A DNA stretch of 64,000 nucleotides from Patescibacteria group bacterium (GCA_038064435.1 JBBTTC010000003.1:9205-73204); one strand, 5' to 3'; positions 529-50,707 are shown, counted from the stretch's first letter. The notes: generated by a model from the letters alone, not told the origin. Numbers and translations are program-made.

Positions 529-540
529 CAGCTAAATTAT

Positions 541-599: not shown

Positions 600-684
600 T
601 CCAGTGTTAACGTTTTGGAATACGTTTTCCGCCGCGGCGGACCAAGGGTCTAAGGGCTAGTTCTAGGTGACTTAGTCCTAAGTA

Positions 685-1263: not shown

Positions 1264-1401
1264 GGTCAGTGTCCTTTCTTGTAAATGTGCTAACTGGGGC
1301 CAAAATCAACGTGATTTTGGTACTTCCTTACTTCTTTCTTAATTATACACCCAATGGCTAGATGTTGTCAATAGCGTAAAAAGGGTTGGGATAGGGGGGA
1401 T

Positions 1402-1632: not shown

Positions 1633-1633
1633 G

Positions 1634-1924: not shown

Positions 1925-2019
1925 AGCACCAAACTAACACAGTCTGCGGGTGCTTTCAATTAACCGTAATGTATCGTGGGCCGGGAACGAGATATGTAAA
2001 AGTGTAAAGACGAGATAGA

Positions 2020-3720
2020 TTAAACCTTAACCACGCGCAAGACTTCTTCCAGCGCCGTGGCGCCAGACAAAACTTTCTGCACGCCGTCTTCCAGCATCGT
2101 CGTCATGCCATCACGTCGGGCGGCGGCTAAAATGGAATCGCTGGGCACGCGCGCCACCACTAAAGACTTAACGCTCTCGGTGAGTAAAAGGACTTCAAAA
2201 ATCCCGATGCGCCCAACATAGCCCGAGCCATGGCACACATGGCAACCACCACCGCGATATAAAGTGATTTTGGCCAAGTCGTCGTGGCCTTGGGCGGCCA
2301 AAATCTTTTTCACTTCCAGATCACCGTCAATTGCCTTGATCTCGTCCTCGGTGGGCGCTCGCGAAGCGCGGCAAGAGGGGCACAGGGCGCGCACCAAACG
2401 CTGGCCAATCACCACATTAACGGTCGACGCCACCAAATACGGCTCAATGCCCATGTCGAGAAGACGCGGCAAGGTGGTGGCCGCATCGTTGGCATGGAGC
2501 GTGGAGAGAACAAGGTGACCAGTCATGGCGGAGTTAACGGCGATCCCCGCCGTCTCGCGATCGCGGATCTCACCAACCATAATTATGTCGGGATCCTGAC
2601 GGACAATTGAACGCAAACCGCTGGCAAAAGTTAGACCAGTTTTAGCATTGACTTGTATTTGACTCACTCCCTCCACGCTGTATTCCACCGGATCTTCGAT
2701 GGTGGAAATGTGCACATCACGCTGGTTGAGCACCTTGAGCATGGCATAAACCGTGGTCGTTTTGCCTGAACCAGTGGGGCCAGTGACCAAAATCATGCCG
2801 TGCGGATTGTCTATCGCCTGCCGCACACGCCCTTCGTCGGGCGACTGCAACCCCAAATCAGATAAGGTAAAACGCCGACTGGCTTCCGACAATAAACGCA
2901 AAACGGCATTCTCGCCCTCCGTCACCGGCACAATAGAAATACGCACATCTACTGGTTCGTTTTGAAATTTGAATTGCAGTTTACCGTCCAGGGCCGCGCG
3001 ATGCTCGTCGGTGCGGAGTTTGGCCATAATTTTTAATCGAGCCAAAACCATCTCGCCCAGCGCGCGCGGCAAGGTCAAAACATCGTGCATCACACCGTCG
3101 ATCCGCAAACGCACCAAAGCATGATCACGGTAAGGCTCCAGATGAATGTCGGACGCTTTGTTCTCGTGGCCGTAACTTAAAATAGCGTCGACCAGAGCGA
3201 TCAGTGATTTTTCCTTCTCACTCTCGATCAGGTTGCCACTCAAATGAGCAATTAGTGATTCGACTTCTTTTTTAATTTCTCCGCGATAATAATTGAGGGC
3301 CTCGGCTAATTGTTTGGCTGTGAGATAGTAGCGCTGAACTGGCTGGCCGCTCTTTTTCTCTAACCAGTGACGCATCTCGGCATCGTCTGGGTCGCGCATG
3401 GCCACCCGGAGTCCATCTTTGTCCGAGCGCCAAACAATCAGGCCGCGGCTACGAGCCGCGGCCTCGGGCACAGTGAGCATGGTCTCAACGTCAATTTGCT
3501 CTTGCGCCAGATTAAAAAACTTTACCCCGTAAGCCTCGGCTACTAACTGGCCCAAGTCGGCATCACGAATCAAGTCCTTGCCCACCAGTACGGTGGGCAA
3601 GTCGGTGCCCGCCGTGGCCGCTTCGGCGGCCGCGGCGTCAAACTGCTCGGCGGCAATATGGCCGGGCAACACCAAAAGTTCACGTAGCTTGGTCGGCTCA
3701 AGCATGGAACGGCTGACCAT
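2020..3720 (-). CDS. pilB: Type IV pilus assembly ATPase PilB (GspE family)
   Basis: 566 aa; N-terminal GSPII_E_N-like region, Walker A GPTGSGKTTT, IEDPVEY, GEIRD, C-terminal CxxC...CxxC zinc motif. Confidence 0.9.
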   Translation of the reverse strand: MVSRSMLEPTKLRELLVLPGHIAAEQFDAAAAEAATAGTDLPTVLVGKDLIRDADLGQLVAEAYGVKFFNLAQEQIDVETMLTVPEAAARSRGLIVWRSDKDGLRVAMRDPDDAEMRHWLEKKSGQPVQRYYLTAKQLAEALNYYRGEIKKEVESLIAHLSGNLIESEKEKSLIALVDAILSYGHENKASDIHLEPYRDHALVRLRIDGVMHDVLTLPRALGEMVLARLKIMAKLRTDEHRAALDGKLQFKFQNEPVDVRISIVPVTEGENAVLRLLSEASRRFTLSDLGLQSPDEGRVRQAIDNPHGMILVTGPTGSGKTTTVYAMLKVLNQRDVHISTIEDPVEYSVEGVSQIQVNAKTGLTFASGLRSIVRQDPDIIMVGEIRDRETAGIAVNSAMTGHLVLSTLHANDAATTLPRLLDMGIEPYLVASTVNVVIGQRLVRALCPSCRASRAPTEDEIKAIDGDLEVKKILAAQGHDDLAKITLYRGGGCHVCHGSGYVGRIGIFEVLLLTESVKSLVVARVPSDSILAAARRDGMTTMLEDGVQKVLSGATALEEVLRVVKV

Positions 3721-4096
3721 CCAACCACTCCTTAACCCGCACCACCACCTCTTTCATGTCCACGTTGGATTTCACAAAATAATCCGCCGCGCCGAGTGCT
3801 CGCGCCTTGTCAATATCACTTTCCTGACCAAGGTTGGAAAGAATAATAATCGGTATGTCGCGAGTCTGCGGATCGGCCTTAACTTCGGCCAAAACCTCAA
3901 AGCCAGTTTTCTTGGGCATAATGAGATCGAGCAAAACCAAATCTGGTTTTTCAGCTTTAATTTGCGATACGGCCTCCTCACCATTTAGAGCTCTGACTAC
4001 ACGAAAGCCCTCACGCGCGAGTTTGTCACCCATGGCGGTGGAAAGAAACTTATCGTCCTCGGCCAAGACAATAGTGGGTTGTGGTTTGGTAATCAT
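3698..4096 (-). CDS. Single-domain response regulator (CheY/PilH-like receiver)
   Basis: 132 aa; IVLAEDD...DLVLLDLIMPKKTGFEVL...IIILSNLGQ...KARALGAADYFVK receiver signature. Confidence 0.8.
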   Translation of the reverse strand: MITKPQPTIVLAEDDKFLSTAMGDKLAREGFRVVRALNGEEAVSQIKAEKPDLVLLDLIMPKKTGFEVLAEVKADPQTRDIPIIILSNLGQESDIDKARALGAADYFVKSNVDMKEVVVRVKEWLDGQPFHA

Positions 4097-4470
4097 GCGT
4101 GTAAAAATTTTTTAATATCGTCGGCAATTTGTTCGAGACGAAAATCCGATTTGGTGTAATAACGACTAATACCGAGCGCTTGATATTGCCGCACCATCTC
4201 AGGGTTAGCCGAATTGGAAACAATAAACACCGGCGTTTCATGCCAACGCGGCTCAGATCGCAATTTGGCCAAAAAATCGAGGCCCGTCTCCTTGCCTAAT
4301 AAATAATGATCCAGCCAGACTAGATCAACGACCGTGTCGGGCAAAGCTAATTGCGTGAAAGCCTGTTCAAAAGTGCGTGAGGTCAAAATCCGAAAACCCT
4401 CGCGCGTGAGCTTGTCTTCAATCGCCCGCAGGAGCAACATGTCGTCTTCTAAAATCAGTACCGTGGCCAT
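4093..4470 (-). CDS. Single-domain response regulator (receiver domain, divergent)
   Basis: 125 aa; VLILEDD...LVWLDHYLLGKETGLDFL...VFIVSNS...ALGISRYYTK. Confidence 0.7.
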   Translation of the reverse strand: MATVLILEDDMLLLRAIEDKLTREGFRILTSRTFEQAFTQLALPDTVVDLVWLDHYLLGKETGLDFLAKLRSEPRWHETPVFIVSNSANPEMVRQYQALGISRYYTKSDFRLEQIADDIKKFLHA

Positions 4471-4476
4471 GATTAT

Positions 4477-5667
4477 TTAAGTTAAGCCCTTACTGCCGGC
4501 TTTCTTGATCATTCCCGACAGTGGCAATTCCACACTAAACGTCGTTCCCTTGCCTTCCAGTGAATCAAACCAGATCCGACCGCCGAAATTTTCGATAATT
4601 GACTTCACAATATACAGCCCGAGCCCCGTGCCCTCCGCTTCCTTGTCTCTAATGTTATCAGCCCGAAACAGCTTCGTAAATATTTTGGTCTTGTCGGCCG
4701 CCGGTATGCCATAGCCGGTATCAGACACTGCGATCAAAGCTACCGGCTCGCGACGCGTAATCGAGACAGTTACCGCACCATCGGTCGGCGTATACTTAAC
4801 CGCATTAGATAACAGGTTTTGAAAGACGATCCGGATCAATTTTGGGTCAGCCATGATTGTAGACAATGAAACATCATAATTTTTCTCGATCCGGATCTTT
4901 TTTTCGAGAATTTTGGGCTGGAGTTCCTCGAGCACACTTTCGGCCACTACCCGAAGGTCGGTCGGCTCCGGCTCAACGGCAAAGGTACCGAGATCAATGC
5001 GCGACACATTGAGTAGAGAATTAACCAGATCAATCATGCGCCGGTTAGCCTCATGCAAACTGGCCAAATATTCCTTTTGTTTATCATTTAATCCCCCAAC
5101 GTCTTCATCCAGCAGCATTTCTGAATACCAATTGATGGCCGAAAGGGGCGTGCGCAACTGGTGCGAGGCCAGCGAAACGAACTCAGTCTTAGCTTGGTCC
5201 ACCTCTTTTTCTTTAGTGATATCACGGAGCAAGATAATACCGCCGGACACTTCGCCATCTTTAAGCAGTGGGGCCAACACCATCGCCGCCGGAAACATCC
5301 GGCCCTGGCGGGTTTTGAGTGAAATATTATCCAGCAAACTGATCGTTACAATATTTTTATCCTCAATCGCCTGCCGCAATGGCACCGCCTCGGGCGGCAA
5401 AGGTTGGTCGTCCTTGTAGAAAGAAAAGATTTTGAAAACGTCTTGACCAACAGCTTCTGGCGGCGCCACACGGAGCATCACGCCAGTGGCCTGATTCATC
5501 ATGATAATTTTGAGGTCACGATCAACGGCCACCAAACCCTCGGCCATAGACGAGAGAATGGCATTGAGCTGACTTTGTTGATTATCGACTTTTCCTTCCG
5601 GCATGTCCGTTATTATAGCGCAGATAAAAAAAGCGCTCGACCTAATGGGGCCAAGCGCTAGGGGCAA
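4477..5667 (-). CDS. Sensor histidine kinase with PAS domain
   Basis: 396 aa; PAS-like N-terminus, H-box SLASHQLRTPLSAINWYSEML, N/G boxes LLSNAVKYT, DTGYGIP, GTGLGLYIVKSIIE. Confidence 0.85.
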   Translation of the reverse strand: MPLALGPIRSSAFFICAIITDMPEGKVDNQQSQLNAILSSMAEGLVAVDRDLKIIMMNQATGVMLRVAPPEAVGQDVFKIFSFYKDDQPLPPEAVPLRQAIEDKNIVTISLLDNISLKTRQGRMFPAAMVLAPLLKDGEVSGGIILLRDITKEKEVDQAKTEFVSLASHQLRTPLSAINWYSEMLLDEDVGGLNDKQKEYLASLHEANRRMIDLVNSLLNVSRIDLGTFAVEPEPTDLRVVAESVLEELQPKILEKKIRIEKNYDVSLSTIMADPKLIRIVFQNLLSNAVKYTPTDGAVTVSITRREPVALIAVSDTGYGIPAADKTKIFTKLFRADNIRDKEAEGTGLGLYIVKSIIENFGGRIWFDSLEGKGTTFSVELPLSGMIKKAGSKGLT

Positions 5668-6068
5668 GGTGACAAAAAGTTTCGGGCTGGTAAAATTAGG
5701 GAAACTCGTTGGCCCGACAACAGTTCAAAAACATATTCCGGCGGCACCCGAGCATAGCCAAAACGTTGGCGTAGGTAACGGGCGCGACGAAAAATTACCA
5801 GCGAATCTCGCGCCGAACCATTCTCGACAACGGCACCCAACGGTTGGGCATACACTCGGCGCCTAAATTCGTACCACACCCCAATCTGCAAAGCAGTGCC
5901 GGCCTCTTCGTTAATCACCCGTCGAATCTCTTTATCCTGACCCGGCCCCAACAGATCAAAACAAGTATTAACTCGCGGCATATTGTTCCTCGCTTTCTAA
6001 GAACCGCCCGACCCCATCTTAGCCCCGAGTCAAAAAAAGTAAAGTCAAAAAAACGCTAAGTTCTATTC

Positions 6069-6155
6069 TGGTGCGCGGGAGAGGATTTGAACCTCCAAGC
6101 CCTTACGGGCGCTACCACCTCAAGGTAGTGCGTCTGCCAGTTTCGCCACCCGCGC
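6069..6155 (-). tRNA. tRNA-Leu (anticodon GAG) with long variable arm; CCA encoded
   Basis: Reverse complement GCGCGGGTGGCGAAACTGGCAGACGCACTACCTTGAGGTGGTAGCGCCCGTAAGGGCTTGGAGGTTCAAATCCTCTCCCGCGCACCA; 7-bp acceptor, TPsiC loop GGTTCAAATCC, anticodon loop TTGAGGT. Confidence 0.8.
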
Positions 6156-6167
6156 GTTTGAAAAAAC

Positions 6168-6548
6168 TTACTTGGCTTCAATCGTCGCCTCGGCTTGCTT
6201 CATTTTGCGGCGAATTTCACGCGCTGATTTGTCTCGCGTGTAGTATAGCTTGGCACGGCGCACGCGGGAAGTGCGCAAAACTTCAATCCGATCAATGACC
6301 GGTGAATAAAGCGGGAAGGTTTTTTCGACTCCGACGTCGCCGGACATTTTGCGAACGATGAAGGTGGCTCCGGGTTCGCGACCATGCTTACGGGCAATGA
6401 CCAAACCCTCAAAAGCTTGCAGGCGAGTTTTGTCGCCCTCCTTGATCTTTTGCCACACGCGCACCGTTGCCCCGGGACCAAAATTTAGAGCCAAACGCTC
6501 GGCGTTTGGCGGCGCCATTTCAAAAGTAAATTTTTTCTTCTCGGTCAT
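6168..6548 (-). CDS. rplS: 50S ribosomal protein L19
   Basis: 126 aa; [57 protein letters not shown] is canonical L19. Confidence 0.9.
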
Positions 6549-6569
6549 GATAAAAGCAAGCCCAAACTA

Positions 6570-7322
6570 TCACGCTTTGTTTAAAGAATCAAGCGCCGCT
6601 AACGCGGCTTCAATGTCGGCCGGCAGTTCAGCCTCCAGCGCCAAACGCTCGCCACTCGGGCTGGCGAGCTCGAGGCGCCAAGCGTGGAGAGCCTGTCGAC
6701 CCAAGCCCGGCAAACACGGCCGCCCGGGAGCATAGAGGTGGTCGCAAACAATGGAATGACCAAGCGCCTTGAGGTGAACACGCAACTGATGAGTCCGGCC
6801 GGTTTGCGGCGCGAGCTCCAACCAGCTGTAACCGGGCCAAGTTTCCAACCGTCGATACTTGGTAACGGCGGCGCGCAAACGCCCACTGGCCGCCGGGCCG
6901 GCCGAGCGCTGACTCGGGTGGCGCCGACTGCGGCCAATCGGCAAATCAATAATTCCAATCTGATTTTTGACCTCACCATAAACCAGCGACAAATAAGTTT
7001 TTTTGATTAGTCGATCATGGAATTGTCTCTTCAAATACTCCAACGCGGCGTCGGTTTTGGCCACAATCAAGAGACCACTGGTGTCACGATCAAGACGATG
7101 CACAATCCCCGATCGTTCCGGATCCGAACCAACTTGCCAACCGGCGCAATAGCGCGCCTTAAGCCACGCCACAACAATTGGACTTCCACTGCGAGGTGCG
7201 CCATGCACCAGCCAGCCGGCTGGTTTATTGAGAACCAAAAGATTGCTGTCCTCGTAAATCGGCGCTGGTTCGAGCATAACGATAACGATAATTGATAACC
7301 ACGGCGGCCGCCAGCGCGCCAA
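6570..7322 (-). CDS. rluA: RluA-family pseudouridine synthase (true start probably internal, near 7277, MLEPAPIYED)
   Basis: HRLDRDTSGLLIVAKTDAALEYLKRQFHDRLIKKTYLSLVYG catalytic-Asp motif. Confidence 0.8.
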   Translation of the reverse strand: MARWRPPWLSIIVIVMLEPAPIYEDSNLLVLNKPAGWLVHGAPRSGSPIVVAWLKARYCAGWQVGSDPERSGIVHRLDRDTSGLLIVAKTDAALEYLKRQFHDRLIKKTYLSLVYGEVKNQIGIIDLPIGRSRRHPSQRSAGPAASGRLRAAVTKYRRLETWPGYSWLELAPQTGRTHQLRVHLKALGHSIVCDHLYAPGRPCLPGLGRQALHAWRLELASPSGERLALEAELPADIEAALAALDSLNKA

Positions 7323-7866
7323 TGAAATTGAAAACTAGGTCAAGCGAAGTGTTCCAGTAGCCGCCCACACCAGTCTGATCGAGCATTACCACGGCGGCAA
7401 ACTCGATCATCTCGTTGAACGCGCCCAGCCCCATACCACCAAGCACGATCAGTGGAAAAAGCACTCGCCAATTAATTGTTGTACTCAAATATGGTCGCAA
7501 CAGATGATAAAAAACCAAGGTCGCCACGGCGAAGCCAAAAAAATGAACGAGTTGGTCAAACTTTAGCACCAGTGATTCGCCGGAGCCGAAGAGGTGCAGG
7601 ATCGGCAGTTTGTAAAGCACTTGACCACCGAGACGCACGCCGCCACCAGCCATGTGCATTAAACCCCAAAGCGATAGGCCGCCAAGAATCAAATTATCAA
7701 ACTTGGTGCGAGGCAGAGTAAGTAAAATGAGTCCAATTATTGCCGAGGTTACTAACACGTACCACAAAAATTCGTAATTCCGAATCGATAAATAGTAGAT
7801 GGCGAAGCCGGCAATATACAGGGCATTAATCGTTGCCAACCATTTTTGTGAGGCCGTTAGGGACAT
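7225..7866 (-). CDS. Polytopic membrane protein (hypothetical)
   Basis: 213 aa with about 6 hydrophobic helices; overlaps the annotated RluA 5' end. Confidence 0.5.
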   Translation of the reverse strand: MSLTASQKWLATINALYIAGFAIYYLSIRNYEFLWYVLVTSAIIGLILLTLPRTKFDNLILGGLSLWGLMHMAGGGVRLGGQVLYKLPILHLFGSGESLVLKFDQLVHFFGFAVATLVFYHLLRPYLSTTINWRVLFPLIVLGGMGLGAFNEMIEFAAVVMLDQTGVGGYWNTSLDLVFNFIGALAAAVVINYRYRYARTSADLRGQQSFGSQ

Positions 7867-7880
7867 GTTAAAATCATAGC

Positions 7881-8531
7881 ATGTTTCGTCGCTCGGGTTT
7901 TACTTTAGTCGAACTTCTAGTGGTGATAGCGATTATCACCTTGTTATCAAGCATTGTGATTGCCAGCATGAGCGAAGCTCGGGAAAAGGCAAAAATTGCT
8001 CGAACACAAGAAGAGCTAACCAGTATCAGAAACGCTGTGACTCTACTTCAACATGATACCGGTAAGTGGCCCTGTGGATGCTTGCCGGGCCAATTGATCG
8101 AGCCGGAAGTTTCTATTAACAGCGTCCAAGCGGGATTAAGAACATCGCCACTGCCTGGTTTTCGGTGCCCAGAAGACCTAAGCCCAGAATGCGGCTGGAC
8201 AGCTGAAGATGTTTCCAAATGGAAAGGTCCCTACGTTAATTTTGATCTTGTGGATCCGTGGGAAAATGATTATCGCTACGATTCAGATTACTTTCCGCTT
8301 ATGAATCGGCAGACACCATGCGGTAGCGCGGCCTGCAATCGTTGGCAATGCCCCGATGCTCCAGCCGCAGTATCGGGCCTTGGAAATGGTGATACACCGC
8401 CGCCAAACTGGCGTCGATCGGCAGTATATTCCTTTGGGCCAGCACCTCTGACTCAATTCATTTATGACGCCCCCTGTTTTACCACGGGCGACTGTTACGG
8501 TTGTCGGGAAGTGTACGCACCACTCTATTAA
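7881..8531 (+). CDS. Type IV pilin-like protein with prepilin N-terminal cleavage/methylation motif and Cys-rich C-terminal domain
   Basis: MFRRSGFTLVELLVVIAIITLLSSIV: class III signal (G/FTLVE) followed by a hydrophobic helix; multiple Cys in C-terminal half. Confidence 0.7.
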   Translation: MFRRSGFTLVELLVVIAIITLLSSIVIASMSEAREKAKIARTQEELTSIRNAVTLLQHDTGKWPCGCLPGQLIEPEVSINSVQAGLRTSPLPGFRCPEDLSPECGWTAEDVSKWKGPYVNFDLVDPWENDYRYDSDYFPLMNRQTPCGSAACNRWQCPDAPAAVSGLGNGDTPPPNWRRSAVYSFGPAPLTQFIYDAPCFTTGDCYGCREVYAPLY

Positions 8532-8931
8532 GTTCTATCGCTGTGAGTATTTACGACACCTTCATAACCTATTTTAGCAGAAATCAGACCTGATTACCCC
8601 TTCATCCACCCCTTCATCGGCTCTGCTACCGGATGAAGGGGCAAGAAGGACAATATCTCTAACAAACACGGGAGATTTTGCCCCTTACTCCTCGCAAAAG
8701 CGAAGTCCGACTTCACTACGGAAAGAGGGTCGCTCCGCTCCGGCCTGCTGGCCTCCGCTCCGCGAATGTCGCGGGGGTTGCGTTTGGGTGGCTCGGCCTT
8801 CTCGTTCCGTCCTGCTGTTTCTTTTTGCTCGTCGTGGGGGGGTAATTTAAGACGGGGAAAAAGGAAGGACGGAACGATGAAGGCCTCGGTTCGGGGGTCG
8901 GTTAGGCGTATAATGACAATATAACGCTTCT

Positions 8932-9795
8932 ATGTCAAAACCGCGCTTAAAACCATTTCAACGCTCTGGGGTGGCCGACCCCCTCAAATTGCAGCCCCGC
9001 GACATCGCTCTCCTCCGCGATGTGGCCGAGTTTCGTTTTCTTAACTCTGGGCAGATTCTCGCGCTTCACGAGGGAAGTAAACGCAACCTCCAAGAACGGC
9101 TGACCCGTCTTTTTCAGCACGGCTATCTTGACCGTCCCGTGAGCCAAACCACCGCCAATCTGCCTTCCACTCACATCGTTTACTCACTCGGCCGCAAAGG
9201 AGCGGAGTTCCTCTCCAAGAACGCGGAGGAGCGCGAAGGGATTTATCGCCGCCTCGCCGAATCTGAACGCACGCTTCCCCTGATTGCTCACTCGTTGATG
9301 ATTTCCCAATTCCGCGTCTGTCTCTCGCTCGCGACGAAGCAAAGCGGAGTAAAAGTCGTTCACTGGTTTCAAGGGCAAGATTTAAAAAATCTTTTACATT
9401 CGGTTCACGGCGAAAATCCCTCATTAGTGCCGGACGCATTTTTTACGCTTGAAGAAAAAGGAGATGTTATCAACTTTTTTGTGGAAGCTGACCGAGGAAC
9501 GATGACGACGGAAAGGTTTGTAAATAAATTAAAAACATATTGGTCGTGGCGTAGCGACGACAGGTTGAAAGAGAAACTTCGCCTTGCCCGTTTCCGCGTC
9601 CTCACTCTCACCCCGTCCGAAGGACGGAGCGAGAGTTTACGGAACGCTGGAAAGGGCGGTGACCCGCGAGGAGAAGGAAGTTTGATGTTTTTATTCACGC
9701 CCGAAACTCAATATAATTTATCCGACCCCAAAAAGTTGTTAGAGCCGATTTGGAAGTCGCCGAAAGACGACACATCTCACACGATTTTGGAATAA
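8932..9795 (+). CDS. Replication-relaxation family protein (plasmid/ICE-associated; hedged)
   Basis: 287 aa; N-terminal LRDVAEFRFLNSGQILALHEGSKRNLQERLTRLFQHGYLDR pattern typical of Replic_Relax-family (winged-helix-like) proteins of actinobacterial plasmids/ICEs. Confidence 0.5.
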   Translation: MSKPRLKPFQRSGVADPLKLQPRDIALLRDVAEFRFLNSGQILALHEGSKRNLQERLTRLFQHGYLDRPVSQTTANLPSTHIVYSLGRKGAEFLSKNAEEREGIYRRLAESERTLPLIAHSLMISQFRVCLSLATKQSGVKVVHWFQGQDLKNLLHSVHGENPSLVPDAFFTLEEKGDVINFFVEADRGTMTTERFVNKLKTYWSWRSDDRLKEKLRLARFRVLTLTPSEGRSESLRNAGKGGDPRGEGSLMFLFTPETQYNLSDPKKLLEPIWKSPKDDTSHTILE

Positions 9796-9874
9796 GTGGT
9801 AAAATGAAGTTGTAAGTTTTCTTGGTCGTATGGTCGTGCGACCTTAATTAAGCAGTTATTTAATAAAATCTTAT

Positions 9875-10495
9875 ATGGGATTATTCAGCTTCAACAAAGC
9901 ACCGGAAATTAGGGACGAAAATATCGCTCAAGAATGGTCGCAACTTGTGCTTCAAATGGGAAACAGGGGCGAAGAACTCCTCAAAAGAATCGCTCACAAG
10001 ATTCAGGAGTTAAACTTGCCGCTCGTTACGCTTATGCGAGAAGAAGCGACGCTCGGCAGTTCCAACAATCGCTATAATTTTGTTTCCGTAATGCACGAGA
10101 AGTATCCTGACTACAAGGTTTGGATAGGAGCTATTGACCGAATGGGGCAACTTAAAGTTTCGTGGTTCTTGGTCGTTAAGTTACCGAATGTCATAACCGC
10201 CAAAATGCGGGATTTGAATCGCGCGTCTCGTGGCGGCAAGGAAAGGGTGTTGCGACCGGGACAACGGCTCGGCCGAATGCTCGGAGCAAAACTCTCCGAA
10301 AAGATTACCGGAAAGCCGACTCCGGTTCGTGTGCGTCCCGACGAATTGACGATGGACGATAAGGAAGAATACGGCGTGTTTATGTCGCTCATTCACCAAG
10401 CGACGACCTCCAGTTTGGGGGAGATGATGAACGAGCTTAACTTGGACTTCACCAAAGTGGACACGCACACCGAGGGCTTCGTTAATCTTTCGTAG
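9875..10495 (+). CDS. Hypothetical protein (island cargo)
   Basis: 206-aa ORF, no recognisable motif, low GC. Confidence 0.4.
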   Translation: MGLFSFNKAPEIRDENIAQEWSQLVLQMGNRGEELLKRIAHKIQELNLPLVTLMREEATLGSSNNRYNFVSVMHEKYPDYKVWIGAIDRMGQLKVSWFLVVKLPNVITAKMRDLNRASRGGKERVLRPGQRLGRMLGAKLSEKITGKPTPVRVRPDELTMDDKEEYGVFMSLIHQATTSSLGEMMNELNLDFTKVDTHTEGFVNLS

Positions 10496-10497
10496 TT

Positions 10498-12486
10498 ATG
10501 GATAATGATTTTGTAAAACAACTTCGGAATTTCTTTACGAAGCCGAAGTCCGAGCCGGTATTGCCTATTAAGTCGCAGGAGCCGCTCGTGCGTTCTCGCG
10601 CTCCCAATCCTAACGAGCTTGCTTTAGGTTGGGCGGGAGGCAAAGATGAAACGAACGGGCAGGAAGTCCACCAACTTAAAGGGGTGTCCCAAGAAGTCCG
10701 AGACACTCATTTTTATATTATTGGTGCTTCAGGAAGCGGTAAAACGCGATTTTTAGAAACACTCATCAAGCAAGATATAGAAAACGATTTGGGCTTTGGC
10801 GTAATTGACCCGCACGGCGACCTTACGGAAGACATAAAAGGTTATCTCTATCTCTTACACAAAGACGACCCTAAATTTCTCCAAGAGAATATCGTTTTGA
10901 TTGACCCGACTAACAAGGAACAAGTTGTTGCTTTCAATCCACTTGAAATAACAAAAGGAGAATCGGCCGCGTCCATAGCTTCTGAACTCACGGAAGCGTT
11001 TAAGAAAATCTGGCACGACGCTTGGGGAGCGAGAATGGAGGATTTGTTGAAAAATACCCTCATCGCCCTTATTCAAAATAATCTCACGCTTGCCGAACTT
11101 CCACTATTTTTGACCGATACGGAAGTGCGTCGCAAGATTTTGGGAAAAGTAGAACACGGCGTAAGCCGCCAGTATTTTAATAGGTTTAATAGTTTACCTC
11201 GCAGAACACAGGACGAGTGGGCGGAATCCACGCTCAACAAAGTAAACGCTTTTTTGTTTGATAACAGTATTCGGCAACTGCTCGCTTCACCAAAAAGCTC
11301 TTTCAATCTGCGGGAAGCGATGGACGAGGGCAAGCTGATCCTCGTCAAGCTGGATAAGGGCAGATTGAAAGGAAGTGCTGACTTGTTGGGTTCTTTACTA
11401 CTCGCCAAAATACAGGCGGCGGCGTTCTCCCGAACGGACACGCCGGAACTGCAACGCAAGAAGTTTTATCTTTACATAGACGAGTTTCAAAATTTCGCTA
11501 CCGAAAATTTTATAACTATGCTTGGCGAGGCTCGCAAGTATCGGCTCGCTCTTTTGCTTGCTCATCAAAATCTCGCTCAACTGCCGACGACTTTAAGGGC
11601 TTCCATTCTCTCTAACTGTGGACTTCAAGCATATTTCAGAATCTCACGGGACGATTCCAACATTCTTGCGAAAGAATCTCTTGCCTCAATTTATAACGAG
11701 CCGACCGGATGGGAGAGTTATATCCAAGCACTCCAAGAATTGCCTAGTCGTGCTTGCGTTATTAAAAATAAAGTTGACGGCGGAGTTATCGCCGTTCGGA
11801 CGCTTGATTTGCCGTCTCCTCACGAAGTCGCGGAAACAGAAGAAAAAGAATTTGCGGAGGAAATCGCGGCTTGTGAGATAGGAAAAAAATATCTGCGAGG
11901 ACGAGAGGATATTGAGAGAGATAGCCGAGTAAGACGAGAAACTCTTTTGGCTACCAAAGAGCCAGAGAGCTTTAGAGAAAAGAAAATGACCGAAGATATA
12001 AATTATGAGGAAATTATAAAAGGCGGAGAGAATGACTATGTGGAGTTCAAGTCATCAATCCGATACGACTACAAAAACGGAGGAAAAAGCAAATCAATTG
12101 AATATGTTATCTCCAAAGCAATTTCTTCGTTTATGAATACGGACGGCGGAAGGTTGTTTGTTGGTGTGGACGATTTCGGTGAAATTAGCGGAATAGAAAA
12201 TGATTATGCCGATGTTCACCATAAAAACAAAGACGGCTTTCTACTCCAATTAAACAACATCATTAACCATTATATCGGCAAAGAATTTCACCAGTATTTG
12301 AGAGTTAAAATTATGCCAATCAAAGAGAAAGATGTATGCGTCATTGAGGTAATTAAAAGTAAAACTCCGGTATTCTTGAAAGACGGAGACAAAGAGGAAT
12401 TTTATATGAGAGCGTCCGCCGCTTCACAACCAATGAGCGTTAGGCAAGCCAACGAATACATCAGGACCCATTTTCACGGAAGATAG
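10498..12486 (+). CDS. TraD/VirD4/FtsK-HerA-superfamily P-loop NTPase fused to C-terminal AlbA_2 (Schlafen-like) putative DNA-binding domain
   Basis: Walker A HFYIIGASGSGKTRFL, VIDPHGDL, Walker B YLYIDEFQNF, TraG-D_C-like LLLAHQNLAQL; C-terminal about 160 aa (YVEFKSSIRYDYKNGGKS...FMNTDGGRLFVGVDDFGEISGIEND) matches the AlbA_2/Schlafen fold signature. Confidence 0.6.
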   Translation: MDNDFVKQLRNFFTKPKSEPVLPIKSQEPLVRSRAPNPNELALGWAGGKDETNGQEVHQLKGVSQEVRDTHFYIIGASGSGKTRFLETLIKQDIENDLGFGVIDPHGDLTEDIKGYLYLLHKDDPKFLQENIVLIDPTNKEQVVAFNPLEITKGESAASIASELTEAFKKIWHDAWGARMEDLLKNTLIALIQNNLTLAELPLFLTDTEVRRKILGKVEHGVSRQYFNRFNSLPRRTQDEWAESTLNKVNAFLFDNSIRQLLASPKSSFNLREAMDEGKLILVKLDKGRLKGSADLLGSLLLAKIQAAAFSRTDTPELQRKKFYLYIDEFQNFATENFITMLGEARKYRLALLLAHQNLAQLPTTLRASILSNCGLQAYFRISRDDSNILAKESLASIYNEPTGWESYIQALQELPSRACVIKNKVDGGVIAVRTLDLPSPHEVAETEEKEFAEEIAACEIGKKYLRGREDIERDSRVRRETLLATKEPESFREKKMTEDINYEEIIKGGENDYVEFKSSIRYDYKNGGKSKSIEYVISKAISSFMNTDGGRLFVGVDDFGEISGIENDYADVHHKNKDGFLLQLNNIINHYIGKEFHQYLRVKIMPIKEKDVCVIEVIKSKTPVFLKDGDKEEFYMRASAASQPMSVRQANEYIRTHFHGR

Positions 12487-12915
12487 AGAGAAGCAGGTTT
12501 GACATTATATGAAAGTATGTCATAGCATTCCCAGAACCTTGCCCGTATGGGTAAGGTCTCAAGGGGGTCCGTATGGATTCCCTTGTTCCTTTTTTGGATT
12601 GAAGAAGAACTAAACCGCCCGCCGTTAATAAGGTTCGGACTTAAAAGAAAATTGCGTCTTGCCTTTCCGTTGAAAATCGCGTTGCGATTTCCATCGTCGG
12701 GCTTGCGCTTGCGATTTTCTTTCGCGTCCTTCGCGCCCGACAGAAAAAAGACTTCGCGGACAGCTTTACTCATTGAAAGATCGCTTGGCGATTTTCAATT
12801 CGGCCTGCTCCGCTTTTTTCTTCGGTCGCCATTTATACCCCCACCCAACCACCCTTCCGAGAGCGCGAAAGAATGATTTGATTTATTTTTCCCAATCCAT
12901 CTATACTTTGTATAG

Positions 12916-13236
12916 ATGGATAACGAGGGTGAGAAAAAAGAGATTGATTGGGGTCAAGAATCCGTTAATGCCCTAAACAGAAGTCAGACAAGCAAAACTG
13001 AAAAAGCGAAAGAAATCGCAGAAGTTCAGTTAAAAGCTTATAAACACATAGATGATGTGGTAAAGCATTTCGGGCCTCCAGATAGAGAATTTTTTAATAG
13101 CCTCACGTTAATTACGGGTGTTATTCCGCTACTTTTCGCCCTTCTTTTTTTCGCTAACGCAGACCCGGGGGAAGAATGGGTGGGAGGTCTCCTAATCTTC
13201 GTGGGGATTTATGGATGGTGGTGGTCTATCAAATAA
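12916..13236 (+). CDS. Small membrane protein (hypothetical)
   Basis: 106 aa; C-terminal two hydrophobic helices; palindrome ccatctatacTTTGtatagatgg overlaps start. Confidence 0.4.
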   Translation: MDNEGEKKEIDWGQESVNALNRSQTSKTEKAKEIAEVQLKAYKHIDDVVKHFGPPDREFFNSLTLITGVIPLLFALLFFANADPGEEWVGGLLIFVGIYGWWWSIK

Positions 13237-13458
13237 AACCCTATCCCTATCAATCTTGACTTTTCCCACGATAATATTGTATAACCTTTTTAAGTTTCAT
13301 TACCCCCGCTTCTCCGGCAAAACGGATGTCGCAGGCGGGACGGCTTGGGGAATACGAGCCGACCCCGAACTTTAGGCAATCATTCCCGATTGGTTAAAGC
13401 AGGAATGGACATATAAATAAGTTTGTAGGCACACGACAAGGAGCGAGCAATCGCTCCT

Positions 13459-14961
13459 TTGTCTTTGGAAAAGAAACTACGGGAAACAGTTTTTACTCCT
13501 TTGGACGAACAACATTTAGAAGAAATAGAATCGCTTGGAGAAACGACTTTCAGGGAACAGCGTAGGGCGTTCGGCATAAAGACGAAAGACCGCCGCAATC
13601 ATATCTACATTATCGGTAAAACGGGAACGGGCAAATCTACCTTATTAAAAAATATGGTGATTCAAGACTTGCGCTTGAATCACGGCGTTGCTTTGATTGA
13701 CCCGCACGGCGACTTGGTTGAAGACTTATTAAATTACATTCCGAAAACTCGCACGAACGAAGTTGTCTATTTCAATCCTGCGGACAAAGAAAATCCGGTC
13801 GCTATCAATATTCTTGAAGCTAAAGGCGACGACGAAAAACATCTCGTCGCTTCATCGCTCATTTCTGTTTTTCGTCATTTGTGGCGGGACTTCTGGGGTC
13901 CCCGCCTTGAACACATTTTATACAACTGCGTCTTGGCTTTGATGGACACGCCCGGGCAAACCTTGCTCGGCGTATATCGTATGCTTGTGGACAACGAGTT
14001 TCGGAAACTTATTGTCGGGAATATCCAAGACCCGATTGTAAAAATGTTTTGGGTTGATGATTATGAAAACTATGACGAGCGTTTTCGTAAGGAAATAATC
14101 TCACCCGTTCAAAACAAAGTCGGACAACTTCTTACCAGTCCCCAAATGCGAAATATTGTCGGCCAACCCAAAAGTTCGGTGGACTTCGGTTTTGTTATGG
14201 ACAATAAAAGAATCCTCTTAGCCAACTTATCCAAGGGGAAAGTATGCGGCCTTATCCGGTGCGGAACTTGTGGTATGGGCATTACCGCCGAGCGGAAAAC
14301 GAAATACCAAAAGAACGGGAATGTTCACCACTACACCTATTATCGTTGCTCCCGAAAAAATAAAGCCGTCAAATGCTCCGAGCCGCCCATTCGGGAGGAG
14401 TTGCTTGATAAGCAACTATCAAATCTACTCCAACCCTACAAAATGCCGCCGGATTGGGCGACCGAGATTTCCAAGATGTCCGACAGGGACGAGAAGGAAG
14501 CCATCCAATCCGCGTCCGCCATCGTTCAAGGGTATAAAGCCGAGATACAAGCCATCTCTCAAAAACTCCAACGCCTTCTTAACGCATATCTTGACCAAGA
14601 TATTGAGCGGGAAGCATACCGCTTAGAGAAGGCAAACCTTCTCTCCCGCAAGAAGTCGTTGGAGGAGAAAATGGCCGAAGTCGCAAAGGGGGTATCCGCT
14701 TGGGTTGAACCCCTGCGCGATTGGTTGAAAGACGCGCAAATGCTTAACGAAATACACGAAGACGCCCCTCTTTCTCTTAAAAAATCTTTCGCCAAAAAAA
14801 TCTTCGGGTTGAACCTGACACTTCACGCGCGCGAAGCGCGCGGCGTTGCGGAAATTCAATGGGCTTCCGTTGCGGAAGCCCATCAAAAAATTGGAAAAAC
14901 TGATACTTGTTTGTTCTTGGTGCGCGGTGAGGGACTCGAACCCCCGGCCTACCCGGTGTAA
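13459..14961 (+). pseudogene. Chimeric ORF: N-terminal TraD/FtsK-like ATPase paralog (truncated after Walker A half) fused in frame to zinc-ribbon + coiled-coil tail of a large serine recombinase; reads into tRNA-Val
   Basis: NHIYIIGKTGTGKSTLL...ALIDPHGDL parallels ORF 10498 up to ...LSKGKV, then CGLIRCGTCGMGITAERK...HHYTYYRCSRKNK (recombinase zinc beta-ribbon) and a coiled-coil; last 14 codons translate tRNA-Val sequence. Confidence 0.5.
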
Positions 14962-14993
14962 ACGGGTTGCTCTACCAACTGAGCTAACCGCGC
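14918..14993 (-). tRNA. tRNA-Val (anticodon TAC), CCA encoded
   Basis: RC: GCGCGGTTAGCTCAGTTGGTAGAGCAACCCGTTTACACCGGGTAGGCCGGGGGTTCGAGTCCCTCACCGCGCACCA; anticodon loop TTTACAC. Confidence 0.85.
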
Positions 14994-15012
14994 ATGAACA
15001 AAATTTACCTGA

Positions 15013-15084
15013 TCCCCTCGGGAAGAATCGAACTTCCATTTAGGGATTAGAAGTCCCTGGTTCTATCCATTAAACTACGAGGGG
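15013..15084 (-). tRNA. tRNA-Arg (anticodon TCT)
   Basis: RC: CCCCTCGTAGTTTAATGGATAGAACCAGGGACTTCTAATCCCTAAATGGAAGTTCGATTCTTCCCGAGGGGA; anticodon loop CTTCTAA; C1-G72 acceptor. Confidence 0.65.
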
Positions 15085-15106
15085 AAGTGCCCAAACTATA
15101 TGGCAA

Positions 15107-15424
15107 TCAACGCGCTGGGTCAACGATGACAGATGGCTGACTCTTTTGGCGCTCAAACCCTGCTTGGCGCGCCGCCAACTCGCGGAGAACACGCTCTAGT
15201 TCGTCGGGGTTTAATAATTTATCAGGATCAAGCGATGTTGGAGTCATCACTGTTTGACCAGCAATACCAGCACCCACATCAAGTCCGCGCATAATTATTG
15301 AGGCGGCAACAAACAATCCCGCCACCAAAACCAAAAAGACGTAAATCAACCGGCGCCAGTCGCGAGCTGGGTTAGGTTCAATTTTTTCTTTGTCGTAACG
15401 ACGTTTAAACATTGGGAAATTCAA
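15107..15424 (-). CDS. Small bitopic membrane protein at end of pilMNO operon (PilP-like position; hypothetical)
   Basis: 105 aa, one TM helix; overlaps pilO end. Confidence 0.4.
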   Translation of the reverse strand: MNFPMFKRRYDKEKIEPNPARDWRRLIYVFLVLVAGLFVAASIIMRGLDVGAGIAGQTVMTPTSLDPDKLLNPDELERVLRELAARQAGFERQKSQPSVIVDPAR

Positions 15425-15971
15425 AACCTAATAATTTAGCCTTGAAAGATCCGCGCCAACGTCGGGTGGCCGGCGTGGATGTGCTCGCCGTGGCACTCAC
15501 TCCCTCGGTCGACAATAGCATCTCGTCAAATACAATTTCCAAGGGCCAAGTCTCGATCACAGTTATTAACTGATGAAGCTGGGCAAAGCTGCCAGTGGCA
15601 TCAAACTGAAGGTCTAGATACCCACCAGCGGCATTGGGCTCCACGACTCGAACACTAAACACAACCCCACTACCACCAAGCACCGACTCAAGCTGATCCA
15701 AAAAGCCGGCGATCTCGGGCCGATCGTCGGTAATAAAATTATTAGCGAGCGTGGCGCGGCCGGCGGCCGTGGCCGTGGAGATCTCAACCAAACGCTGGAA
15801 ATATCTGGCCTTTTCTTCACCAATAGTGATCTCAGTGGCCAAACCACCAATACGGCCCCACTCTTTTTGCCCCAGCCAGATCAAACCGATCAAAATAGCC
15901 AAACCAAAAACATTAAAGCCAAGCATGGCCAGCAGACTGGGGCGGAGACTAATTGATTGATTAAGTTTCAT
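15405..15971 (-). CDS. pilO: Type IV pilus assembly protein PilO-like
   Basis: 188 aa, N-terminal TM then coiled-coil; operon position after PilM/PilN. Confidence 0.5.
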   Translation of the reverse strand: MKLNQSISLRPSLLAMLGFNVFGLAILIGLIWLGQKEWGRIGGLATEITIGEEKARYFQRLVEISTATAAGRATLANNFITDDRPEIAGFLDQLESVLGGSGVVFSVRVVEPNAAGGYLDLQFDATGSFAQLHQLITVIETWPLEIVFDEMLLSTEGVSATASTSTPATRRWRGSFKAKLLGFEFPNV

Positions 15972-16528
15972 GGTTGGTGAGTAACCGGCACCCTCACGTC
16001 GAGCGTAATATCAAAGTCAACCTGGCGATTTTTAATCAGGTCCGACACTGGTGACTCAATATTACTAAATATCGGCTCCGACTTGAGCGCCGCCACCCAA
16101 TCTAGTAAAACCGCCCGCGTCGTAGCTTGACCCGACATCTTAATCTCCCCCTCCACGTCAGAATGACGTAAGTAGTGGATGGACCCAAGACTAATACCGG
16201 CAGGACGCAAGCTGATCAATTTAGTTAGTAAAGCTGCCGTTCGATGATCACTCTCCAGCCATTGGCGAAAGGTGGTGAGACGTTTCGCCGATTCGGCAAG
16301 TTCAACCCGCAAACGATCAAAGCGTTGCACGTCAACTACTCCCAGCACTTGCGCCAACTCTCGTTCTAGCTGCCGACGCTCGGTGACTATCCGCAAATAA
16401 AATGACCCCACCATCAAGCTAGCCAACACCAAGAGCACTGCCAACAAAAATCCGGCCAAAATAAAACGGCGGCGGCGATAATCGCGGCGGCGAGCTAGAC
16501 GATCAATCGGCAACAATAAGTTAATCAT
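15968..16528 (-). CDS. pilN: Type IV pilus assembly protein PilN
   Basis: N-terminal INLLP motif (MINLLLPIDR), basic stretch, single TM, coiled coil. Confidence 0.7.
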   Translation of the reverse strand: MINLLLPIDRLARRRDYRRRRFILAGFLLAVLLVLASLMVGSFYLRIVTERRQLERELAQVLGVVDVQRFDRLRVELAESAKRLTTFRQWLESDHRTAALLTKLISLRPAGISLGSIHYLRHSDVEGEIKMSGQATTRAVLLDWVAALKSEPIFSNIESPVSDLIKNRQVDFDITLDVRVPVTHQP

Positions 16529-17616
16529 GAAGTGAGGTGGAAACGACGCAACGCCAAACCGAGCGAAGTTGCGTAACGCAAGGATTGATTAAGATTAATA
16601 CTCGGGATATATTCATCGAGCGAAAATAAATTAGTCCACACATTGCCCAGAGCCACCGGTAAACCTAAACTCAAATTAAGATAATCGACCAAGCCGGGTA
16701 AGGTAGCTTGCCCGCCGCACAAGATGACGCGCCCAATTTTATTGGTCGACGTAGCAGTGGCACTTTGGTGAGTCAACCAATAACTTAACTGCTTGTTAAT
16801 CTCATCGCGCAACACCGAGACCAACGGCACAATCGCAAAAAAAGTTTCGCGATTGGCGGCCGAAGGCAAAAAACCACGTTCGACCTTGTAGCGTTCCGCC
16901 GTGTTGTAATCAGTGCCGAGTGTTTTCTCCAGTGCATGAGTAATATCTTCCCCTCCAATGTTGTTGACGGTTGACGTCCAGAGCACCTGCCGACCGCGCG
17001 TGACAAAAAAACTGGTCCGTGTTTTGCCAAAATCTACCACCATCACCAAATCACCGGCGGCCGATGTTTGAGCCACCACCGCTCGCACCACCGCTTGCGC
17101 CTCAATCTCCATAGCCTCGGCCACCAACCCGCCGGCGGCCACCACCCCAGCATAGGCGGCCACGATTCTCTTCGGCAAGGCCGTCACGGCCACCTCCAGC
17201 TTGGCTCCGCGCGAAACAATTTCATAATCAAAAACCGTATCGGCGACAGCGAGCGGAATATGCTCTTCCAACTGCAATTCCAAACTGCCACGAACATCGG
17301 CCTCATCCATGAGTGGTAGGGCCAAGCGCACCAAATACGCTTCCTCCTCTGGCAAAGACACGGCCACCTGACGAAAGCGGGCCCGTCGACTCAAGGCCAA
17401 CAACACCTTAGCCAAAACTTCAGGTTGCTTAATTTCTCCGGCCTCCACGGCCCCGGCCGGCACTGCCTCGTCACCATAATCTATGAGACGCAGGCCGGCC
17501 GGCCCGTAATTTAGTCGCACAAATTTAACTGACCGATCAGAGATGTCAAGACCCACCGCCGCCGGCGCCAAATAATGCGGCGGCGGGAACAAACGCAAAA
17601 ATTTATCATGAGCCAT
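16525..17616 (-). CDS. pilM: Type IV pilus assembly protein PilM (actin-like ATPase fold)
   Basis: 363 aa; VGLDISDRSVKFVRL N-terminus, FtsA/PilM-like glycine motifs (DFGKTRTS, ILCGGQA). Confidence 0.8.
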   Translation of the reverse strand: MAHDKFLRLFPPPHYLAPAAVGLDISDRSVKFVRLNYGPAGLRLIDYGDEAVPAGAVEAGEIKQPEVLAKVLLALSRRARFRQVAVSLPEEEAYLVRLALPLMDEADVRGSLELQLEEHIPLAVADTVFDYEIVSRGAKLEVAVTALPKRIVAAYAGVVAAGGLVAEAMEIEAQAVVRAVVAQTSAAGDLVMVVDFGKTRTSFFVTRGRQVLWTSTVNNIGGEDITHALEKTLGTDYNTAERYKVERGFLPSAANRETFFAIVPLVSVLRDEINKQLSYWLTHQSATATSTNKIGRVILCGGQATLPGLVDYLNLSLGLPVALGNVWTNLFSLDEYIPSINLNQSLRYATSLGLALRRFHLTS

Positions 17617-50705: not shown

Positions 50706-50707
50706 GA

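Follow-up and report, generated by a model that had tools for sequence, protein, structure and literature searches.

A degraded integrated element at a tRNA-Val gene of a Patescibacteria genome and its family of Replic_Relax and coupling-protein-like islands

We examined a 64,000-nucleotide stretch of DNA from a Patescibacteria group bacterium (GCA_038064435.1, JBBTTC010000003.1:9205-73204; hereafter the window), focusing on a segment of ~6.4 kb that lies between a pilin gene and two tRNA genes. In order, the segment carries genes for a Replic_Relax protein, a protein of 206 amino acids (aa), an ATPase homologue (ATPase 1), a small open reading frame (ORF), and a chimeric ORF that joins the start of a second ATPase (ATPase 2) in frame to the tail of a large serine recombinase (Table 1). 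Domain and tRNA searches bore out the gene content listed in the original prediction, which was made from the sequence alone and described a degraded integrative element beside tRNA-Val. The region ~8542-14922 is an integrated element bounded by the pilin stop codon and by the CCA end of tRNA-Val. In Rfam searches, including a permissive search over the element, the two tRNAs were the only matches.

Both ends of the element can be placed by comparison with relatives, which are referred to here by locus numbers (L). The left attachment core, TG(G)TG at 8542-8545, lies 10 nt past the pilin stop codon, and the switch point reads (pilin TAA)GTTCTATCGC/TG-TG/AGTATTTACG. The right attachment core is the CCA end of tRNA-Val, TGGTG on the + strand at 14918-14922, with the switch point ...CTTGTTTGTTCT/TGGTG/CGCGG(tRNA-Val). 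In L104, the recombinase 3' end passes straight into the sequence that precedes the Replic_Relax gene: window position 14922, where homology to L104 stops, aligns with L104 position 5209, and window position 8543 with L104 position 5211. Because L104 is contiguous where the ends of the window element join, this junction is the attachment site (attP) expected from excision. L092 carries a copy that is 94% identical to that of the window in a different flank, with homology beginning at window position 8566, and homology to L122 begins at the left repeat arm. Full large serine recombinases are present in L104 and L093, and the complete 575-aa L093 enzyme reads into tRNA-Gly(ccc) with the same geometry as seen at tRNA-Val. 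These comparisons show that integration occurred by crossover between the short core (TGGTG) and the CCA end of tRNA-Val, and that the tRNA was left intact. A search of the window found no direct repeats of the tRNA-Val 3' end; long direct repeats are not expected, since a serine recombinase needs only a short core. The copy in another flank, the ends that rejoin as in L104, and the truncated recombinase and ATPase 2 uphold the prediction of a degraded integrative element at this tRNA, and it is very likely that the segment is a degraded integrated member of a family defined by Replic_Relax and type IV coupling protein (T4CP)-like genes.

The lower GC content reported in the original prediction is real but modest. 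GC is 46.3% over 8532-14917 and 50.3% in the remaining window, yet the dip amounts to only ~2 standard deviations (other 6.4-kb intervals average 50.1%, standard deviation 2.0, minimum 44.7) and is absent from the first 1.3 kb of the element, which is at 51-53%. Tetranucleotide usage is the clearer foreign signal. The segment has a tetranucleotide distance of 0.372, compared with 0.125 +/- 0.026 (maximum 0.208) for the other 6.4-kb intervals, none of which (0 of 91) reaches its value. The segment is foreign, and its composition is not uniform with that of its surroundings.

The recombinase part of the chimeric ORF (residues 262-488) is 92% identical to residues 273-499 of the 514-aa L104 large serine recombinase, which bears Resolvase, Recombinase, and Zn_ribbon_recom domains. 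The window ORF retains only Zn_ribbon_recom and the tail; the Resolvase and Recombinase domains, corresponding to residues 1-272 of the L104 enzyme, are absent. No intact integrase is present, as predicted, and the loss of the catalytic domains leaves the window copy unable to excise with its own enzyme. Likewise, residues 1-262 of ATPase 2 are 90% identical to residues 1-262 of a 443-aa L104 ATPase, and the C-terminal 181 residues are missing, including a conserved FY-L-Y-I/V-D-E-F-Q-N-F segment that we read as a putative Walker B motif. The chimeric ORF extends 44 nt into the antisense strand of tRNA-Val. A single later deletion fused ATPase 2, at codon 262, to the recombinase zinc ribbon, and took the catalytic domains of the recombinase, the right arm of the repeat, and any cargo. 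An assembly artefact was rejected as the source of the fusion gene, which was also found in the independent assemblies L007 and L008.

Table 1. Features of the element, its surroundings and repeat-bounded relatives (positions are those of the window unless a locus is named).
Feature	Position	Strand	Description
Pilin gene	7881-8531 (stop codon 8529-8531)		N_methyl and T2SSG domains
Left inverted-repeat arm	8542-8847	+	Homology to perfect inverted repeats (~300 nt) in L100, L106 and L136
Repeat motif in the arm	8596-8641	+	Direct ACCCCTTCAT at 8596-8605 and 8608-8617; inverted ATGAAGGGG at 8633-8641
Replic_Relax protein, 287 aa	8932-9795	+	PF13814, E=9e-27; ORF intact
Conserved protein, 206 aa	9875-10495	+	Constant middle gene of the trio
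ATPase 1, 662 aa	10498-12486	+	Soluble VirD4/TrwB-like coupling-protein homologue; Pfam and NCBIfam matches
AlbA_2 (Schlafen) domain	~12028-12438		C-terminal in ATPase 1
Two adjacent imperfect palindromes	12636-12829		~95 nt each; non-coding, between the ATPase genes
ORF, 106 aa	12916-13236	+	Hydrophobic C-terminus; sub-threshold DUF998 match only
Chimeric ORF, 500 aa	13459-14961		ATPase 2 start and recombinase tail, in frame
ATPase 2, N-terminal 262 residues	13459-14244	+	Second T4CP-like paralogue
Large serine recombinase, C-terminal remnant	14245-14961	+	Zinc ribbon and coiled coil; Zn_ribbon_recom E=4e-10
tRNA-Val(tac)	14918-14993	-	ARAGORN and Rfam, 71.7 bits; intact
tRNA-Arg(tct)	15011-15085	-	Host gene adjoining the target tRNA, outside the element
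dnaN	40700-41812		Neighbour of the VirB4-like gene
dnaA	42008-43378		Neighbour of the VirB4-like gene
yidC	43981-44721		Neighbour of the VirB4-like gene
VirB4-like ATPase	47326-49188	-	Chromosomal type IV secretion system, outside the element; P-loop_TraG 90 bits, AAA_10, DUF87
Complete inverted repeat pair	L100		309 nt, 100% identity
Complete inverted repeat pair	L106		285 nt, 100% identity
Complete inverted repeat pair	L136		299 nt, 100% identity

The remaining genes are under purifying selection, with ratios of nonsynonymous to synonymous divergence (dN/dS) of 0.10-0.21 (0.10 for Replic_Relax relative to L092, and 0.16 for ATPase 1), and are not degenerating. Compared with L104, synonymous divergence (dS) is lowest in the recombinase tail (0.21), reaches 0.69 in ATPase 2, and is ~1.0-1.1 in both ATPase 1 and Replic_Relax; the closest Replic_Relax gene is that of L092 (dS 0.24), found in another genome context. 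This unevenness along the element (0.21 to 1.1 relative to L104) indicates that the elements are mosaics. The 106-aa ORF is restricted to copies of the same genome (L007, L008, L010, and L011) and is probably cargo or spurious. The window copy is a dead remnant, of use mainly as an entry point to its family.

Relatives were collected by a metagenome scan with a Replic_Relax profile, which returned 80 loci. Where at least 2.6 kb of downstream sequence was available, ATPase 1 was found in 27 of 32 loci and the 206-aa protein in 26 of 32, with the gene order unchanged; where at least 7 kb was available, ATPase 2 was found in 9 of 13. ATPase 1 is always linked to Replic_Relax. Replic_Relax, the conserved protein, and ATPase 1 form a constant trio.

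Inverted repeats lie on both sides of the cassette, which runs from Replic_Relax to ATPase 2; the two arms of one element are identical, and arms of different elements are ~76% identical. In addition to the three complete pairs (Table 1), seven more pairs that reach contig ends are 98.9-100% identical, for 10 loci in all. Many contigs begin 120-230 nt upstream of the Replic_Relax gene, which is explained by assembler behavior inside such a repeat. On its outer side, the right arm borders the recombinase 3' end in each of L100, L106, and L136, and the left arm borders variable host DNA. An inverted second copy of the arm is not present in the window. The outer end of the arm reads TGGTG in the window, L100, and L104, CTTGCTG in L106, and CTGGAGTG in L136, which suggests integrase subfamilies with different target specificities.

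L104 closes on itself via one arm, and fits a circle of ~11 kb in which two segments are split by a perfect repeat of at least 439 nt. One segment encodes Replic_Relax, the conserved ~200-aa protein, ATPase 1, and ATPase 2, and the other encodes the recombinase, a Dam methylase, a 260-aa protein, and an AAA_15 ATPase. The orientation of the cassette relative to the recombinase varies (L104 versus L121, L122, L124, and L093). Cargo in the relatives is mostly related to defence (Dam methylase with AAA_15, type III restriction-modification, PHP/AAA_21, KAP NTPase, and HerA-SIR2), and these genes lie outside the conserved cassette and differ between elements. None of the elements inspected contains VirB4, VirB6, or VirB8-like genes, and Pfam and NCBIfam searches of the ORFs of the window element returned no VirB-type gene, in agreement with the original prediction.

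Two relatives show further arrangements. In the Parcubacteria genome GW2011_GWF2_44_8b (L001-L006, 3699-19891) a relative lies between tRNA-Thr(cgt) and a defence block with HerA-SIR2 and type III restriction-modification genes; a cupin protein and a 541-aa PT-HINT/intein-like protein are encoded upstream of Replic_Relax, and an ArdC-N-like protein and an S49 peptidase between the two ATPases. In L100, a tRNA-Arg(tct) at 15997-16070 is found inside the repeat-bounded cassette, abutting a block homologous to window positions 13252-14243, which comprise the upstream region and start of ATPase 2; the tRNA-Arg(tct) of the window sits just outside the element. The internal tRNA of L100 may have been left by an earlier recombination event at a tRNA.

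The Replic_Relax protein matches PF13814 with 94.8 bits (cut-off 25.3), residues 28-204 spanning profile positions 1-173 of 191. This family corresponds to the MOBC/MobC class of relaxases (PMC5357655 Table 1; PMC12857230), which are PD-(D/E)XK enzymes with a winged helix (PMC5357655; PMC3424549; PMC12857230), and its Pfam name covers both plasmid replication and relaxation (PMC3424549). The earlier statement that the segment has no MOB relaxase is therefore wrong. Proteins of Candidate Phyla Radiation (CPR) bacteria are themselves listed as MOBC in Table S3 of PMC12102498. From its family membership, we consider the window protein a putative MOBC-class, PD-(D/E)XK-type relaxase homologue. An invariant P167-D168-A-F-F ... 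E185-A-D187-R188 pattern in the alignment is compatible with a PD-(D/E)XK core; a single-sequence AlphaFold2 model was unusable (pLDDT 38). Homologues number 2530 cluster representatives at E<=1e-3, a phage family match is to phrog_9381 ("replication initiation by nicking"), and the CPR Replic_Relax profile aligns to the Replic_Relax protein of an Embleya plasmid with a type IV secretion system (T4SS) at an hhalign probability of 97.4%. The protein had no match among PDB sequences, and none by tblastn against 72,556 plasmids. For the 206-aa protein, Pfam, NCBIfam, PADLOC, and PHROG searches gave no family match.

Both ATPases match VirD4/TrwB-type coupling proteins, and not FtsK/TraB, at the level of domain profiles. 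For ATPase 1, TrwB_AAD_bind (42 bits, cut-off 20.5), TraG-D_C (29.3, cut-off 22), and T4SS-DNA_transf (22.8, cut-off 20.1) all pass, as does DUF87; for ATPase 2, TrwB_AAD_bind passes at 40.1 bits. FtsK_SpoIIIE stays below its cut-off of 24 in the two element ATPases (20.0 and 17.5 bits) and aligns in the P-loop region only. The best PDB sequence matches of ATPase 1 are TrwB and DotL, both weak. More than 3000 homologues of ATPase 1, at 55-88% identity, occur in many CPR lineages, mostly on short contigs. Taken together, the profiles suggest that the element ATPases are a distant T4CP subfamily.

ATPase 2 is 32% identical to ATPase 1 and 50% identical to a core chromosomal ATPase of CPR bacteria. 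The wider ATPase 2 family is a core gene with two conserved contexts across 76 genomes (L016-L091; for example L047 5333-12850 and L024 4282-15059). In the first, the T4CP-like ATPase follows secD, secF, a Sigma70_r4/HARE-HTH protein, and a 431-aa membrane protein, and is followed by pgk. In the second, found in Saccharibacteria, dprA, topA, and the same HTH protein precede a fused ~900-aa ATPase, with ftsQ and ftsW after it; the dprA neighborhood hints at a role in DNA uptake. The element-borne copies are a distinct branch (50% to the core type, ~90% among near relatives). The possibility, raised with the original prediction, that the ATPases belong to a housekeeping family thus holds for the wider ATPase 2 family but not for the copies on the elements. 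A scan of GTDB genomes with the ATPase profile mostly recovered the core chromosomal paralogue, with the element type only in L012-L015. Most of the "orphan T4CPs" counted in Patescibacteria are probably of the core type.

We favor, with moderate confidence, the reading that the segment is an immobilized copy from a family, widespread in Patescibacteria, of integrative mobilizable elements (IMEs) that transfer by way of a relaxase, a T4CP, and a T4SS; for the transfer route considered by itself, we see an even balance of belief and doubt. An intact element would hold a cassette with a perfect inverted repeat of ~300 bp (in L104, at least 439 nt) on either side. The cassette would encode the MOBC-type Replic_Relax protein, the ~200-aa protein, a soluble VirD4-like ATPase that may or may not carry AlbA_2, cargo that varies, and another T4CP-like ATPase. 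The large serine recombinase would abut the outer end of a repeat arm with its 3' end, the junction being attP, and defence cargo would usually be present as well. Going by the families to which the proteins belong, the recombinase of intact copies would excise a circle, Replic_Relax would bind the motif in the repeat arm and cleave nearby, and the coupling ATPase(s) would pass the DNA, probably single-stranded, to a T4SS encoded elsewhere.

A candidate helper is the chromosomal VirB4-type system ~33 kb away in the window. Its placement matches the report that virB4 lies near dnaA in some Patescibacteria (PMC12102498). The T4SS-like cluster spans 44675-56745, and its VirB4-like gene sits among large ORFs without Pfam matches (402, 237, 213, 158, 641, 1146, and 223 aa).

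Several observations weigh against mobilization of this kind. Neither ATPase has an N-terminal membrane anchor: the first ~70 residues are free of hydrophobic stretches in both proteins; some Gram-positive T4CPs likewise have none. The NCBIfam equivalog for TraD and CD1115-type VirD4 is far from reached, the best score being 49.6 bits against a cut-off of 250. The proposed route gives no role to two inverted arms that each carry an att half-site. An empty site was not found: no pilin homologue exceeds 47% identity, and the contigs that carry the nearest ones (L172-L175) lack synteny with the window. Patescibacteria T4SSs are considered to have an essential, non-conjugative role (PMC12102498; PMC12857230). 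Finally, MOBC relaxases are atypical, and no covalent DNA intermediate was seen for the MOBC enzyme TraX (PMC12857230), which makes the single-strand step the least secure part of the scheme.

A bolder version is that these cassettes are the missing conjugative substrates of Patescibacteria, the MOBC-like nuclease and soluble coupling ATPases docking onto the "relaxase-less" essential T4SS and the arms pointing to a new mode of DNA processing; in a variant, the related core chromosomal ATPase and its membrane partner would be used instead. We regard this as possible but doubtful. If it were true, the paired arms, each with an att half-site and a nuclease-binding motif, would imply cleavage at two ends or flipping of the cassette in the manner of the 2-micron circle.

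Two candidate cis-acting sites bear on how the DNA may be processed. The first is a motif ~55 nt inside each repeat arm, made up of two direct 9-10-mers and one inverted copy. The same arrangement is found ~305-335 nt upstream of the Replic_Relax start in ~25 divergent loci, and the motif words co-vary between elements (CCCCTTCAT/ATGAAGGGG, CCTAGTCAT/ATGACTAGG, CCCCATCAT/GTGATGGGG, and CCCCTACAT/CGTAGGGG). For TraX of pAD1, the direct repeats that the protein binds lie 70-120 bp away from the nick site (PMC12857230), and by this analogy the motif is a plausible candidate for a Replic_Relax binding site or an origin of transfer (oriT). The second is the pair of palindromes between the ATPase genes, which contain long invariant runs across five elements that are otherwise 70-85% identical. 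In these five sequences, 91.6% of paired cells on the + strand and 94.8% on the - strand are complementary, compared with 38-52% when the partners are slid; the slightly better pairing on the minus strand is due to G-U pairs. The palindromes have no Rfam match and are a candidate single-strand origin, regulatory site, or RNA.

A rival reading takes the segment for the maintenance module of an integrative plasmid. Under this episome model, which is compatible with the IME model, Replic_Relax would be a nicking initiator, the palindromes would be origins, and the ATPases would serve segregation, dimer resolution, or DNA uptake, with the inverted repeats permitting flip-flop isomerization as in the yeast 2-micron circle. 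The naming of the Pfam family for both plasmid replication and relaxation (PMC3424549), the PHROG matches to "replication initiation by nicking" and "replication initiation protein", the fit of L104 to an ~11-kb circle split by a perfect inverted repeat, the occurrence of the cassette in both orientations relative to the recombinase, and the 50% identity of ATPase 2 to the core ATPase beside secDF or dprA-topA all agree with it. However, no partition or copy-control genes were recognized, the T4CP-specific TraG-D_C domain is present, the same gene pair occurs elsewhere inside a bona fide conjugation cluster, and many copies are on contigs of 30-110 kb with host genes and so are integrated. We think maintenance as an episome an unlikely function for the cassette.

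The original prediction compared the segment to actinomycete integrative and conjugative elements (AICEs), in which an FtsK/TraB-like hexameric pump moves double-stranded DNA without a T4SS; Replic_Relax would then act only as a replication initiator. Consistent with this, the element has no VirB-type genes, its ATPases are soluble members of the HerA/FtsK superfamily (DUF87 matches) with weak NCBIfam matches to the archaeal DNA translocases CedD and CedB, and plasmid tblastn matches are mostly from Streptomyces (93 of 183). MOBC enzymes are without a known covalent intermediate (PMC12857230), and a restriction-like nuclease that cut both symmetrical arms could free a double-stranded fragment. 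The ATPases nevertheless resemble T4CPs: FtsK_SpoIIIE is below cut-off and TrwB_AAD_bind, TraG-D_C, and T4SS-DNA_transf are above, and TrwB and DotL are the best PDB matches. Among three plasmid matches opened, the Embleya T4CP lies beside Replic_Relax in a PrgI/VirB4 cluster and the Streptomyces match is in a plasmid typed MPF_T, neither having the look of a TraB/clt/spd locus. RepSA, RepAM, Prim-Pol, Spd, and Nudix are absent from the ORFs of the element in Pfam and NCBIfam searches, and the host has a VirB4 system. With a MOBC-class relaxase homologue, T4CP-family ATPases, and no AICE accessory genes, transfer of double-stranded DNA by a TraB-like pump is not supported, and we judge it quite improbable.

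It is very improbable that the segment is a defence system against phages, or what remains of a phage or satellite, with HerA-like ATPases and a PD-(D/E)XK nuclease at its core: the ATPases do match mad8 (5e-15), DndH, and HerA in PADLOC, ATPase 1 has an AlbA_2/Schlafen domain, the relatives carry Dam methylase with AAA_15, type III restriction-modification with PHP/AAA_21, HerA-SIR2, and KAP NTPase as cargo, phrog_5156 is matched at 5e-41, and operons of a MobC-like relaxase and a VirD4-like ATPase occur in Bacillus phages (PMC3357382), but PADLOC finds neither Replic_Relax nor the 206-aa protein and no complete known system, only generic ATPase parts, no IMG/VR contig encodes a Replic_Relax relative, only weak matches (3 and 1) were obtained among 50,697 phage records, and capsid, terminase, and tail genes are absent from the loci inspected.

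Returning to the preferred reading of a mobilizable island, the closest described architecture is that of the streptococcal IME_Class_8 (PMC5357655), which is likewise compact, combines a serine integrase, a Rel_PF13814/MobC relaxase, and a VirD4-type coupling protein, and has no mating-pore genes; the comparison is one of gene content, not of protein sequence. The CPR elements differ in adding a second T4CP-like paralogue and the conserved ~200-aa protein, in the perfect ~300-bp inverted repeats that flank the cassette, and in ATPases without a membrane anchor. Their attP is at the 3' end of the integrase gene and their targets are tRNA 3' ends, whereas streptococcal serine-integrase IMEs insert within protein genes. 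A plasmid of Embleya sp. NBC_00896 (NZ_CP108778) also has a T4CP directly beside a Replic_Relax protein homologous to that of the CPR elements, and ATPase 1 matches such T4SS-type Actinomycetota plasmids by tblastn (E=4e-27). In contrast to the CPR element, which has no mating apparatus of its own and places the relaxase first in gene order, the Embleya pair is within a full PrgI/VirB4/NlpC-P60 mating apparatus, and its T4CP has 812 aa.

The MOBC prototypes, TraX (pAD1) and MobC/MobB (CloDF13), have a PD-(D/E)XK-type relaxase with an N-terminal winged helix (PMC12857230), an arrangement predicted for the CPR protein from its family. The binding of TraX to distant direct repeats is similar to what the motif in the CPR repeat arm suggests. 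CloDF13 also carries its own coupling protein. Both are plasmids and not integrated, and the likeness to CloDF13 comes from literature descriptions alone; the ORFs of the CloDF13 record had no Pfam match. AICEs share with the CPR elements a small size, integration at tRNA genes, a replication or nicking protein with a single-gene translocase, and the absence of a T4SS; they differ in their FtsK_SpoIIIE-type TraB, which has no above-threshold counterpart in the CPR element, in RepSA/RepAM/Prim-Pol, Spd, and Nudix, and in that the CPR ATPases are T4CP-like.

A survey of Patescibacteria (Quinonero-Coronel et al., 2025, PMC12102498) reported 5,713 VirD4-like T4CPs, only 148 of them near virB4, together with 58 MOBC relaxase hits and 39 relaxase genes close to a t4cp gene; these findings, like the position of virB4 near dnaA, agree with what the window shows. 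The survey counts genes; elements, repeats, integrase, att sites, and cargo are not described there, and the mobile ATPase 1 type is lumped with the core chromosomal ATPase 2 type. The original claim that such a module had not been described in CPR genomes thus needs to be narrowed: MOBC hits and relaxase-t4cp pairs had already been counted, and the elements that carry them had not been analyzed in that work. Elements of this kind are known, and their signature genes had already been tallied in CPR (PMC12102498). In the literature searched, we found no description of an architecture with two T4CP paralogues, of a constant gene of undefined family, or of perfect inverted repeats with att half-sites, and none of an attP at the integrase 3' end, a tRNA CCA-end target, or defence cargo in such elements.

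CPR bacteria account for a large part of groundwater communities, and how genes move among them and what their essential T4SS does are standing questions. The locus and its 80 relatives divide the T4CP-like genes into a core chromosomal type in a housekeeping context and a mobile type, the latter always coupled to a MOBC-like nuclease and found in a tRNA-targeting island with defence genes. The family offers a testable candidate for DNA mobilization in CPR bacteria, along with serine integrases whose att sites are mapped.

The element interrupts a type IV pilus neighborhood (window positions 1-8531 and 15107-17616). Upstream are genes for a PilC-like protein (T2SSF), a PilB-like ATPase (T2SSE, 2020-3720), two response regulators, a histidine kinase, and the pilin; downstream are a PilM_2-family gene (16525-17616) and three small ORFs without Pfam matches. 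A second T2SSE ATPase is encoded in the window at 29743-31437. Within the upstream block, a HicA-toxin gene and a small partner ORF at ~1400-1925 (L007 905-1427) lie in a low-GC patch (43-47% at 1001-1750), which may be another small foreign insertion.

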